Assembly (NCBI GenBank): GCA_964632215.1
Contig: CAZWBG010000001.1
Span: forward strand, 495,863 to 559,862
Length of the DNA stretch: 64,000 bases
Source: an uncultured Candidatus Saccharibacteria bacterium
GTDB taxonomy: Bacteria; Patescibacteriota; Saccharimonadia; Saccharimonadales; UBA7683
Reading direction: 5' to 3'
Below, one piece after another: positions 27,325-54,878 of this stretch. The position numbers and the translations under genes were made by a program. How positions within the stretch are numbered: position 1 is the first letter of the stretch; every line of letters starts with the position of its first letter. The notes below the pieces were generated by a model that had not been told where the DNA came from, did no database searches, and worked only from the letters and a program-made list of their open reading frames with translations.

Positions 27325-27837
27325 CTACCAAGGGCAAGAGTTTGTTTCTGTGCCAGCTATAATTTCTTGGTTTCCATACACGAAAGCGTGTTTATCCCAA
27401 AAATCTATACTATTCTTGGTTGCAGTAGCTGATTGCGGGAAAGGCTCATCATTCTTCTCATCAAAAACTCCGATCCAAGCACTTGATAAAAAGTAGTCGC
27501 TATTCGCCTGGCGAACTAGATGCATTGCTACAGTAGAGCAATCATCTCCTTTGCGATTCTTAACAAAAGGTACAAGACCATCATCTTCCCTATTTTTTCT
27601 AACCCCATACACTAATATGTCATCTTCATTCGTTTCTATAACATCGCAAACACCAATTGTGCGACCTATATCCACATGAGTTTTTATTTCATCATCTTCT
27701 AAACTCATTCTAGAAATAACTTCTATTAGTAGGTTCTTTAGTTGAGGAGTGTCATCAATATGGGTAGCGGTATGTGAACCCACAGGGTCGTAGACAACGC
27801 GCACTCTATTCTTGGACTTTGCAAGTAGCTCATTCAT
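27325..27837 (-). CDS. Hypothetical cytoplasmic protein (no family recognised)
   Basis: 170-aa acidic ORF with no TM helix or signal peptide. Low GC by hand count (21/60 on the line starting at 27601). Flanked by the 27-nt direct repeats. Confidence 0.55.
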   Translation of the reverse strand: MNELLAKSKNRVRVVYDPVGSHTATHIDDTPQLKNLLIEVISRMSLEDDEIKTHVDIGRTIGVCDVIETNEDDILVYGVRKNREDDGLVPFVKNRKGDDCSTVAMHLVRQANSDYFLSSAWIGVFDEKNDEPFPQSATATKNSIDFWDKHAFVYGNQEIIAGTETNSCPW

Positions 27838-27925: not shown

Positions 27926-27952
27926 AAGGTGCAAACTATTGCAACTGAATTA
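27926..27952. repeat. 27-nt direct repeat, copy B
   Basis: AAGGTGCAAACTATTGCAACTGAATTA. Its last 3 nt are the stop codon of the HAD gene. Confidence 0.6.
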
Positions 27953-28633
27953 CGACTCAACCAATACATCATCAAAGGTATTTAAGATAACGTCGGCCGC
28001 ATTTAGGTCTTGTTCTTTAACGTTACCTACACGTAGCCCTATAACAGTGCATTTTGCTGCCTTGCCTGCAATCGCACCATTCTTTGAATCCTCAAAAACG
28101 ATAGTTTCAGTATTGATTGCCCCGAGTTTTCTTATTCCAGCTATAAATGGCCCTGGGTCTGGTTTGTGCTGTGTAATATCTTCTTCACTAATAATGGCGT
28201 CAAAATAACCTGTCCAGTTATGTTGACCGAGTACGGCATTGACTTGTGAAAGCTTGCTCGCAGTCACGACAGCAAGCTTGAGTGATTGTAGTTTAGAGAC
28301 TCGCTCAAGAAATGAATCCACTCCAGGCAGAGCCTTTGCGGTGGTAATGTTACTTTCGTATAGCTTAAAAAATTCTGCAGCATATTCCTTGGCGTTATAA
28401 TTGATGCCATATTTGGCAATCATGCTCGCAAGGAAATATTCCTCGTTGATGTTAGTGCCATCACGACGCCATACTTTTACGAATAATTCGTAGTCAGTTT
28501 CTTCTGGTTCTACTCCATGATTTGAAAGTTGCTCTAGGAATGTAGCAGGACCTACAGGCTCAGTATCCACGAGCGTACCGTCCATATCAAATAGAAGAAA
28601 TTTTTTGTGACTGGGTATTGTGTATTTGCTCAT
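27950..28633 (-). CDS. HAD-superfamily hydrolase (beta-phosphoglucomutase-like)
   Basis: Motif I FDMDGTLVDTE, cap region, FEDSKNG motif. Confidence 0.85.
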   Translation of the reverse strand: MSKYTIPSHKKFLLFDMDGTLVDTEPVGPATFLEQLSNHGVEPEETDYELFVKVWRRDGTNINEEYFLASMIAKYGINYNAKEYAAEFFKLYESNITTAKALPGVDSFLERVSKLQSLKLAVVTASKLSQVNAVLGQHNWTGYFDAIISEEDITQHKPDPGPFIAGIRKLGAINTETIVFEDSKNGAIAGKAAKCTVIGLRVGNVKEQDLNAADVILNTFDDVLVES

Positions 28634-28640
28634 GTCATAA

Positions 28641-28678
28641 CTATAACAGAAACTCCCTTACGGGAGTTTCTGTTATAG
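28641..28678 (-). other. Perfect 17-bp hairpin, 7 nt upstream of the HAD start codon
   Basis: CTATAACAGAAACTCCC-TTAC-GGGAGTTTCTGTTATAG. The core AACTCCC/GGGAGTT is shared with the tRNA-Lys terminator. No T-run follows on the minus strand. Confidence 0.6.
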
Positions 28679-28699
28679 TATTCCTGCTAGGGTCTAGAT

Positions 28700-28725
28700 T
28701 GGAGGGTCCAGTGGGGCTCGCCCAC
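28700..28725 (-). pseudogene. Duplicated 3-prime fragment of tRNA-Lys (T arm, acceptor strand and CCA)
   Basis: 28699-28720 is identical (22 nt) to 28888-28909. The copy continues to 28725 with a 2-nt deletion in the T loop. Confidence 0.6.
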
Positions 28726-28855
28726 ATCCTGCAGGCCCAGAACTTCTGCCAAGGCAACATAGTTGCCAGGTGAAGATTCTCTTGCAAAATGCCACAGGCA
28801 TTTCTCACCCACTCCACCCTTTGGCGCGTCGTGAAACCGAGCTAAAGAATCCTCC

Positions 28856-28883
28856 AAACAAAAAACTCCCAAATGGGAGTTCT
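28856..28883 (-). terminator. Rho-independent terminator after tRNA-Lys
   Basis: AACTCCC-AAAT-GGGAGTT stem-loop (28864-28881) followed by a T-run on the minus strand. Confidence 0.7.
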
Positions 28884-28888
28884 TAGTT

Positions 28889-28965
28889 TGGAGGGTCCAG
28901 TGGGGCTCGAACCCACGACACCCTGCTTAAAAGGCAGGTGCTCTAACCAGCTGAGCTATGGACCC
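28889..28965 (-). tRNA. tRNA-Lys (anticodon UUU)
   Basis: 77-nt cloverleaf read by hand. Acceptor GGGTCCA/TGGACCC, D arm GCTC..GAGC, anticodon arm CCTGC-CTTTTAA-GCAGG, T arm GTGGG-TTCGAGC-CCCAC, encoded CCA. Confidence 0.9.
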
Positions 28966-29156
28966 AAATGTTGGGTGTACAGTAAAGTACTACTTGATAC
29001 ATAAGTGCAGTGATTACCGAATGGTTAGAGCACCGTGCTTATCGTCTTCGTTTTGTTTATTCATTTACCAAAACGGACCGAAGGACTAGGTTATTTTCGC
29101 ATATTTACAGATAAAGCGCAATGTCGATTTATTCACTCTGGCACAGACCACTACAA

Positions 29157-29642
29157 TCAATTTTTCTTTTTCGGTTCTTTTCTCACGCTATGAGTTAAGG
29201 TCATTTCCAACACAGCCAGTACCGCAGCAGCTGCTAAGATAGCGTTTTCGTAAGGGTCTAGGAAAAAGAGAAAACCTGAGGTTGTGATACTGGCTGGCAC
29301 AAAACTCAGTGGTTGTAGAATTTGAACCCCAAAAAATACTACTAAAATACCTAGCATAATACTCGTTAGTAATGAAAGTACAGGATTAGATCGATGGACC
29401 TTAACTGCAAAGAGTGAAACCAGCATCGGCAAAAACGTTAGTACTAGCTGCACTACAACCGGTACATAGACCCGAACACTAGAGCTGGTCGAAGGCAAGA
29501 GACCAATAACCCAAGTACCGAGTAACTGATTGAGTAAAACTCCAGCCAGCAGCCCTAAAATGGCCACGCCTGCGCTCGTCTTCTTTACAAAGACCACAAG
29601 CGTTACGAAAATCGCAATTCCAAGCATAATTATATCTGCCAC
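29157..29642 (-). CDS. Polytopic membrane protein, unknown function
   Basis: 161 aa with 4-5 TM helices and a Lys-rich C-terminus. Last gene of the rimK-strand block. Confidence 0.55.
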   Translation of the reverse strand: MADIIMLGIAIFVTLVVFVKKTSAGVAILGLLAGVLLNQLLGTWVIGLLPSTSSSVRVYVPVVVQLVLTFLPMLVSLFAVKVHRSNPVLSLLTSIMLGILVVFFGVQILQPLSFVPASITTSGFLFFLDPYENAILAAAAVLAVLEMTLTHSVRKEPKKKN

Positions 29643-53306: not shown

Positions 53307-53652
53307 AATCATGGCACTATTCTTTCGTAAAATTATAAAAAATGACTACCGATTAGTGAATCATCAGAACGATCAACAAGGTTTGTCCTGACTAATAAAG
53401 ATGGGCTCCTTTAATCTATATTGTCCGGAATATGTTGCCTCTGTTATAATGCCATCAAGCTACTTGTAGCTCAGACCTAAATCTCGAATTATCGGGACAT
53501 GGTCGTCAAAACTATCGTGAATATAAAGCTCGTCGTCAGAGCCTATTTCACGATAGTCAATACTGGAAACGGTATTGGGTGACTTCGGTCATCGCTGGCG
53601 GCGGGCTTTTTGTATTGCCGCCAATTATCAACTACTAATAAAGGAGTGCTCT

Positions 53653-54801: not shown

Positions 54802-54878
54802 TGGTAGCAGCGACTGGAATTGAACCAGTGACCTCGAGCTTATGAGTCTCGCGCTCTAACCAACTGAGCTACGCTGCC
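54802..54878 (-). tRNA. tRNA with CAU anticodon (elongator Met most likely; Ile2 not excluded)
   Basis: 77-nt cloverleaf read by hand. GGCAGCG/CGCTGCT acceptor with G1-U72, D arm GCTC..GAGC, loop CTCATAA, T arm ACTGG-TTCAATT-CCAGT, encoded CCA. It lacks the initiator features (no three G-C pairs in the anticodon stem). Confidence 0.85.

Follow-up and report, generated by a model that had tools for sequence, protein, structure and literature searches.

A conserved, probably transcribed structured element built from tRNA-Lys fragments behind tRNA-Lys(UUU) in some Saccharibacteria

The window analysed here is the whole stretch of 64,000 nucleotides (GC content 44.6%) from an uncultured Candidatus Saccharibacteria bacterium, and our subject within it is a segment of ~160 nt that trails the gene for tRNA-Lys(UUU). 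Read along the minus strand, tRNA-Lys is followed by a terminator-like hairpin (T1), the segment (28859-28699), a 19-nt spacer, an 18-bp hairpin and then the ATG (28633) of a gene for a HAD-family phosphatase (Table 1). On balance, we favour the view that this segment (28699-28859, minus strand) is an undescribed conserved structured RNA, the domesticated remnant of recombination at the T loop, which trails tRNA-Lys(UUU) in some Saccharibacteria (Saccharimonadales); literature searches found no description of it. We call it the element, and its copies and the related loci without it are given by locus labels (L007 and so on).

Table 1. Features of the element, its surroundings and the neighbouring genes, in window coordinates
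Feature	Coordinates	Strand	Basis or remark
tRNA-Lys(UUU), CCA encoded	28889-28965	-	ARAGORN; Rfam RF00005, 71.5 bits
Terminator T1, core AACUCCC-AUUU-GGGAGUU (28881-28864) then UUUUUUG	28851-28894	-	Repeat search
Segment (a), inverted and diverged copy of the tRNA 3' third (variable loop to CCA)	28826-28859	-	Least conserved part of the element
P2 hairpin, end of (a) plus start of (b)	28814-28829	-	RNAalifold; double changes in 3 of 4 pairs
Segment (b), AGGGTGGAGTGGGT, direct copy of variable loop and T-stem 5' strand	28807-28820	-	Comparison of copies
P3 hairpin	28783-28807	-	10 pairs, 7 compensatory; 97.7% of cells paired
P4 long hairpin, tip GGCAAC-ATA-GTTGCC	28739-28780	-	18 pairs, 15 compensatory
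P5 hairpin, GCCUGC-AGGAU-GUGGGC	28720-28736	-	7 pairs, 4 compensatory; 100% paired; one invariant G·U
Tail, CGAGCCCCACTGGACCCTCCA(A), distal copy of tRNA C56-A76	28699-28720	-	Repeat search, BLAST
Spacer (28680-28698) and 18-bp perfect hairpin (28640-28679) with T1-like core	28640-28698	-	Repeat search
Inverted 13-mer, tRNA positions 17-29 (D arm to anticodon stem)	29022-29034	+	57 nt upstream of the tRNA
HAD-family phosphatase gene	27950-28633	-	Pfam HAD_2, 1.2e-29; neighbour outside the element
170-aa open reading frame (ORF)	27325-27837	-	Pfam: no match
161-aa membrane-like ORF	29157-29642	-	Pfam: no match; kept beside tRNA-Lys in L025

The element is built of pieces of tRNA-Lys, the 3' third of which is present three times: directly in the tRNA itself, then inverted and decaying in segment (a), then directly again. 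This last copy consists of segment (b) and the tail, which together make one tRNA 3' fragment whose T loop is split between positions 55 and 56 by an insert of ~100 nt; the only sense tRNA positions present in the element are ~44-55 and 56-76. Four features had been described in a sequence-only reading of this DNA (a repeat of the tRNA 3' end, a segment able to close on itself, a hairpin core shared by two sites, and an inverted match to the tRNA upstream), and all four were found where it had placed them. The 22-nt repeat is exact (28699-28720 = 28888-28909) and can be lengthened to 26 nt at the cost of one mismatch; its BLAST E-value in the window is 1.3e-6. Its proximal copy is the last 21 nt of tRNA-Lys (C56-A76), and the two copies are separated by only ~167 nt. 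Upstream of the distal copy, GTGGG--CGAGC does read as a T arm minus two bases, as had been suggested. Of the core AACTCCC-N4-GGGAGTT the window has just two occurrences, both at this locus, against 0.12 expected with up to 2 mismatches; the second lies inside a perfect stem, as claimed, of 18 bp at 28640-28679 rather than 17 bp, 6-7 nt from the ATG at 28633. Segment (a) is ~33 nt long, and an exact 17-mer of it, GGCTCGAACCCACGACA, survives in L011; segment (b) reads AGGGTGTCGTGG(G)T in other copies, with AGGGTGTCGTGG exact in L014 and L020.

To place the element among relatives, species genomes were searched with the 3' half of tRNA-Lys only. This gave 12 loci, one of which (L015) ends 19 nt past the tRNA and is uninformative; the element follows tRNA-Lys and its terminator in 5 of the 11 informative Saccharibacteria species genomes (L008, L009, L011, L014, L018) and is absent from the other 6 (L007, L010, L012, L013, L016, L017). 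A metagenome scan added eight carrier loci (L019-L026), of which L025 is closest to the window copy. Apart from the type-A copies, we distinguish a type B (L009, L019, L023, L018 and the first half of L011), in which P2 is much longer and the insert shorter and different, and a type C (L021), which has two GCCAGUGGC hairpins. The L011 copy is composite: ~105-345 nt past the start of its tRNA, a type-B copy ending CCCACTGGCA is fused to a type-A part that comprises P3-P5 and the tail. Covariance model R1, applied to ~206 kb including the window, found one copy per locus, always after tRNA-Lys, and no further copy elsewhere in the window; the model can be used for annotating the element. The hosts pair off in the same way as the subtypes, with RimK identities of 89% between the window and L025, 89% between L008 and L014, and 88% between L009 and L019, which indicates that descent of the element is mainly vertical, with losses.

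The conserved structure is centred on the insert, which folds into the covarying hairpins P3, P4 and P5, and on a T-stem-like helix that closes a four-way junction. In this helix the partners are GGG(U) of segment (b), at 28808-28812, and CCCC of the tail, at 28713-28716; the closing pair varies between G-C, G·U and A-U with the tail's C/U polymorphism. P3 and the tip of P4 are the two perfect hairpins that the sequence-only reading had singled out, P3 being its AAATGCC-ACA-GGCATTT in plus-strand reading; the P4 tip is GACAGC/GCTGTC in L025, and P5 has the variants GGUCGC/GUGACC and CCUGCC/GGUAGG. The same reading had also proposed a tRNA-like 3' end, with a T-arm hairpin formed by GTGGG and CCCAC. 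This hairpin is not the conserved structure, because GTGGG becomes GTAGG or GTGAC in other subtypes while P5 remains paired: GTGGG is the 3' strand of P5. A candidate pseudoknot that would join CCAGUGG in the P3 loop to CCACUGG in the tail was rejected, since the window, L025 and L026 do not keep it.

The evidence that carries these helices is comparative. From eight type-A copies of 53-83% pairwise identity, RNAalifold derived P2, the T-stem-like closing helix, P3, P4 and P5; in this alignment 96.0% of cells are paired and 24 of 47 pairs show double changes, a result matched by none of 500 shuffles, and slid controls gave 34-48% paired cells and 3-9 such pairs. Adding L011, which was not used to build the model and scores 71.7 bits against R1, brought the figures to 96.2% and 31 of 47 pairs (shuffles 0/500; slid controls 34-47% and 5-12 pairs). 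The covariation that the sequence-only reading had named as a check is found, then, in nine type-A copies. G·U combinations outnumber A·C by 25:3 in the eight-copy alignment, or by 17:3 once the invariant G·U of P5 is set aside, and this asymmetry points to the tRNA strand as the functional single strand.

Conservation of the element also stands out from its surroundings. The tRNA trailer is 74-81% identical in type-A pairs and 67% identical in the type-B pair L009/L019, while the upstream intergenic DNA of the same pairs is within the range of shuffled sequence and unalignable. No reading frame is open in all copies of the element, and its insertions and deletions are not multiples of three; a 61-codon ORF that spans the segment in the window was considered as a small gene and rejected, since no frame is conserved across copies. 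Searches of Rfam with the segment returned no family at gathering thresholds or at E up to 10, only hairpin-like microRNA noise, and ARAGORN and Rfam called no tRNA at the locus except the real tRNA-Lys, with no cloverleaf for the segment. Covarying helices, strand-specific G·U, above-flank conservation and the lack of coding are the generic signs of a structured non-coding RNA, and the element displays them all. The genomes of Saccharibacteria are very small, with hardly any DNA to spare, and few of their non-coding RNAs, if any, have been characterised; the ComEC proteins of the element's carriers are only ~40-60% identical. Because a 160-nt element has been kept, with compensatory changes, in such genomes and across hosts so far apart in protein identity, it likely does something.

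The two ends of the element are complementary in a less straightforward way. TTGGAGG (28699-28705) does pair with CCTCCAA (28851-28857), as had been noted, but this is not its partner's only option: the real tRNA 3' end pairs equally well, across the terminator, with 21-nt arms at 90%. More generally, the 5' part of segment (a) can pair either with the tail, in a helix we name P1, or with the real tRNA 3' end. The duplex of (a) with the tail has a predicted energy of -19.8 kcal/mol in the window (z = -2.9), and in most copies P1 is better than in shuffled sequence, but L020 and L022 have it only weakly and L025 not at all. An apparent compensatory change in the end helix of L024 was withdrawn, as an insertion interrupts that tail.

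Another key observation concerns the tail itself, CGAG(C/T)CCCACTGGACCCTCCA, which corresponds to tRNA positions C56-A76. The block of identity begins at C56 in every type-A and type-C copy and stops at the tRNA 3' end; a boundary in the T loop with extension to the tRNA 3' end is the typical sublocation for tRNA-targeting tyrosine integrases. The T loop of tRNA-Lys varies by lineage, at position 60 (C or U) and position 57 (G; A in L022), and the tail carries the variant of its own tRNA in 13 of 13 loci, including the sister lineages L009 (C) and L019 (U). We take this match to mean that the tRNA 3' block and the tail evolve in concert. The CCA end has been lost in L018, L020 and L023. In L024 the tail is interrupted after CCCACTGGAC by a 446-nt insertion with a CTGGAC direct repeat at its borders (the insertion and tail region spans tRNA start +250 to +712 in the oriented copy), and the insertion holds a 117-aa ORF with its own Shine-Dalgarno sequence. 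The tRNA acceptor strands of L024, GGGCCCG and TGGACCC, imply a C4·A69 mismatch.

Two hairpins frame the element as candidate transcription signals. The stem of T1 can be extended, with the tRNA 3' end CCUCCAAAC pairing with GUUUGGAGG, the first bases of the element, and related AACUCC...GGAGUU terminators follow tRNA-Lys in L009, L012, L024 and L025. Past the tail, a second hairpin with a U run on the tRNA strand (T2) is present in 10 of 14 loci; the 18-bp palindrome of the window (28640-28679) sits at the T2 position but has no U run, and the post-tail spacer of the window is homologous to those of L025 and L019. No promoter-like site was found between tRNA/T1 and the element in the window, L014, L020 or L025. 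Given this, and T2 after the element in most relatives, we infer that the element is transcribed by read-through from the tRNA promoter. The loci L007, L009, L011, L012, L013, L015 and L018 share a promoter-like motif, TTGACTTTTTG...(A)TACGGATAATRTAAGGAGTTA, 30-140 nt ahead of their tRNA; the motif is not evident in the window.

The tRNA-Lys gene and the element also move together. The conserved neighbourhood reads RimK cluster, DUF192, membrane protein, tRNA-Lys, the element where present, variable genes, ComEC, YebC; in L017 ComEC directly follows tRNA-Lys, and in the window the HAD gene and the 170-aa ORF lie between the element and ComEC. With the membrane protein/DUF192/RimK side and the ComEC/YebC side as reference flanks, the tRNA-Lys cassette is inverted in L010, L015, L016, L020, L022, L023 and L025, where the inverted block of L025 also takes in the upstream membrane-protein gene, and is not inverted in the window, L009, L014, L017, L019 or L026. 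The cassette is a recurrent inversion hotspot. In L020, L022 and L023 the inverted tRNA and element face convergent genes; because the element moves with the inverted tRNA cassette, it belongs with the tRNA and with none of the genes downstream, HAD included.

We propose that these observations describe a process in which a by-product of recombination was captured. Site-specific recombination, or a duplication, at the T loop of tRNA-Lys would have made the repeats; small junction deletions (GTGGGT--GAG, GTGGG--CGAG) would have locked the remnant in place, and selection would then have retained it. Read-through of T1 from the tRNA promoter would make the RNA and tRNA 3' processing would release it, to fold into a compact, end-paired form that shows the T stem and acceptor 3' strand of tRNA-Lys, with concerted evolution keeping the tail identical to the tRNA. 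Its role is a matter for speculation: the RNA might mimic the tRNA-Lys 3' end, or compete with it, for a factor that handles that end, or it might be a cis element in tRNA-Lys precursor metabolism. The sequence-only reading had offered two alternatives, the scar of an excised or decayed island and a tRNA-derived structured small RNA. The second is the better of the two, being supported by conservation and covariation across divergent Saccharibacteria and by the G·U asymmetry; the first is plausible as the origin, with the repeat edge inside the T loop, and fails as a neutral present state, as the element is conserved against background flanks. In other words, a scar is the probable beginning of the element, not its present condition.

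Several points weigh against a structured RNA of this kind. About half of the related genomes do without the element, so it is dispensable. The metagenome loci were chosen by repeat architecture, and the type-A alignment has only 9 sequences from few clades. G·T is the most tolerated mismatch in folded single-stranded DNA too, so the G·U asymmetry alone cannot part RNA from single-stranded DNA. Single-sequence folding gave z = -1.5 on the tRNA strand versus -4.2 on the opposite one; it favoured the wrong strand and is neither decisive nor, for the tRNA strand, convincing, and the argument for structure is carried by the comparative data. The end-closing helix P1 is weakly supported (z from +0.2 to -3.7), and the loss of CCA in three loci, with the split tail of L024, weakens models that need a tRNA-like terminus. 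T1 in the window looks like a strong terminator, and passage through it is our inference.

A stronger version of the structured-RNA explanation is tentative, and we hold it with clearly less confidence than the explanation itself: the element may represent a new class of tRNA-mimic RNA of the Candidate Phyla Radiation (CPR), derived from a domesticated att-site remnant, in which a conserved three-hairpin domain has taken the place of the T loop in a 3' fragment of tRNA-Lys. Such an RNA, made by read-through of the terminator and with a 3' block evolving in concert with the working tRNA, would act in trans or guard the integration hotspot at tRNA-Lys. As a mimic acting in trans, its targets could be tRNA-Lys 3' end processing, CCA repair, or a toxin or phage factor.

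The main rival, which we judge unlikely, is that the element works at the level of DNA, as a non-autonomous, integrase-less integrative element (like a cis-mobilizable element, CIME) or another recombination substrate. Its hairpins would then be folded single-stranded DNA or palindromic protein sites, and its 21-nt repeats the cores of attachment (att) sites attL and attR, homogenised by recombination; precise deletion would join the tRNA to the post-tail spacer (...GGTTCGAGCCCCACTGGACCCTCCAATCTAGACCC), and a circle would join P5 to T1 (...GGATGTGGGCGAGCCCCACTGGACCCTCCAAACTAAGAAC). Much about the element is congenial to this proposal: the repeat has a sharp, constant edge at C56 and ends at the tRNA 3' terminus; the tail follows neutral tRNA polymorphisms at all 13 loci, as a DNA-level process would have it do; the ends are inverted copies of each other, like terminal inverted repeats; presence among relatives is patchy; the tRNA cassette has been inverted repeatedly; and the tail of L024 has taken a 446-nt insertion. 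A large serine recombinase gene also abuts the tRNA in L010. It encodes 536 aa (L010:3171-4781, plus strand; Resolvase, Recombinase and Zn_ribbon_recom domains), and its frame runs antisense into the tRNA-Lys gene, a tRNA without a second repeat: the 420 nt downstream of it yielded no further tRNA fragment.

Against this stand the single copy per locus, with none elsewhere in the ~206 kb searched, and the way in which relationships of the element track those of its hosts. No integrase or transposase gene adjoins any copy. Furthermore, stems as long and bulged as these (P4 has 18 pairs) and a G·U excess of 25:3 suit a transcript better than a protein-bound duplex, and the 1-2-nt deletions in the junction core should block exchange by a tyrosine recombinase. 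The locus does have an att-type repeat with its boundary in the T loop, of which 21-22 nt are exact in the window. Its two copies enclose no integrase or island genes; the island that the sequence-only reading envisaged at this site does not lie between them in any relative, and empty sites exist. As for a miniature inverted-repeat transposable element, multiple dispersed copies were not found in the 206 kb that include the window. The tail is an inverted copy of (a) and a direct repeat of the tRNA end, though both relationships involve tRNA-derived sequence and (a) is decaying. Viral contigs had no match to the exact tRNA 3' 22-mer and, for a degenerate 20-mer pattern of the tail, a single uncertain one, in a phage contig.

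This match, L147 (599-739, minus strand, of the 102-kb contig IMGVR_UViG_3300005253_000144), contains GGTCGTGGGTTTGAGTCCCACTGGACCCTCCA, a 32-nt sequence like the 3' third of tRNA-Lys; no full tRNA is called there, and the fragment is followed by sequence resembling a tRNA 5' half, with a sub-threshold match to YrlA (33 bits; gathering score 69). A single match to the core pattern in viral contigs, L148, was rejected by the covariance model, and the AT-rich internal motif gave more than 120 chance matches in those contigs.

That the element is a neutral scar, a decayed island or an old tandem duplication of the tRNA 3' end and its terminator that is now functionless, is largely refuted and very improbable. 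To be sure, its building blocks are pieces of the tRNA, decay is plain to see in segment (a), roughly one relative in two is without the element, and the shared core of the two window hairpins is what duplication of a tRNA end plus terminator should leave. A scar would not have been kept across ~40-60% ComEC identity beside unalignable intergenic DNA, nor with compensatory changes in 31 of 47 pairs; moreover, 21-nt direct repeats should allow easy, precise deletion, yet the element persists. Least credible of all is the idea that the element serves the HAD gene downstream, either as a cis-regulatory leader or by encoding a small protein. The 18-bp hairpin close before the HAD start and the 61-codon ORF invite it, but a leader role is excluded because the element stays with the tRNA in inverted cassettes facing convergent genes (L020, L022, L023), and against the idea speak also downstream genes that vary by locus, HAD homologues elsewhere without the element, the lack of a frame open in all copies with indels that are not multiples of three, and the absence of a T-box match in Rfam at the locus.

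The inverted 13-mer upstream of the tRNA, exact as reported, is a separate matter. Window-wide the match is weak (E = 0.31), and by our own estimate chance is unlikely at only 72 nt from its partner; read from the sequence, it reaches ~16/17 matches if a 1-nt indel is allowed. It is missing from 19 of 20 related loci, L016 having a lookalike with 3 mismatches, and its absence from L025, the closest relative, makes it specific to the window lineage, in which a rearrangement at the tRNA, peculiar to that lineage, may have left it as a scar.

As regards the neighbouring genes, homologues of the HAD protein (57-64% identity) lie on contigs with unrelated neighbourhoods, and a protein-pattern scan for HAD in the species genomes gave no matches; synteny based on HAD was dropped as an anchor, the unrelated contexts of the homologues implying that this gene is unlinked to the element. 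The public 211-aa version of the protein begins at Met17. A start there would cost the DxDxT motif (FDMDGT) its Asp16, so the longer version, which begins at 28633, looks like the correct one. Elsewhere in the window, a full-length match to LOOT RNA (RF03000) at 53474-53593 (plus strand) scores 78.1 bits against a gathering score of 46.4, and a tRNA-Met (54802-54878, minus strand) lies 1.2 kb from it.

The element resembles several known systems without matching any of them. With att remnants and CIMEs it shares a direct repeat of the tRNA 3' end, from the T loop to the 3' terminus, at a site that is variable among relatives. Unlike them, it has only the short interval noted above between the repeats, with no genes there, an interior whose structure is conserved with compensatory changes, and an extra inverted tRNA fragment; and no relative has a full island or integrase genes between the repeats. 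Integron attC sites and the subterminal hairpins of IS200/IS605 also conserve hairpin structure above sequence and show strand asymmetry. On the other hand, our element is single-copy, fixed beside one tRNA gene with no associated integrase or TnpA, and multi-branched instead of a single imperfect hairpin.

Among RNAs, one comparison is with small RNAs from tRNA 3' external transcribed spacers (3'ETS), e.g. 3'ETS-leuZ of E. coli, which act by short unstructured seed pairing and lie before the terminator. Like these, the element sits in the trailer of a tRNA unit, has no promoter of its own and is predicted to be released by tRNA processing; it differs in lying past a terminator, in being highly structured and in carrying a copy of the tRNA's own 3' end. 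YrlA (RF02553) and transfer-messenger RNA (tmRNA) invite the other comparison. YrlA had no match at E up to 10 in 28500-29200, and for tmRNA there was no ARAGORN call, no Rfam match and no conserved ORF at the locus. The element has T-stem and acceptor-strand sequences derived from a tRNA, as they do, and its ends may pair; it differs in having no 5' acceptor strand, in the replacement of the T loop by a 100-nt three-hairpin insert, and in a CCA end that is paired or lost in some copies. The element illustrates clearly how something that recombination left behind at a tRNA gene has become a conserved structure, and its 21-nt block, which changes together with the tRNA, gives direct access to the study of recombination at the tRNA hotspots of these bacteria. 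Should the element indeed imitate the tRNA-Lys 3' end as an RNA, the few known bacterial tRNA mimics, tmRNA and YrlA, would be joined by one of a new design.

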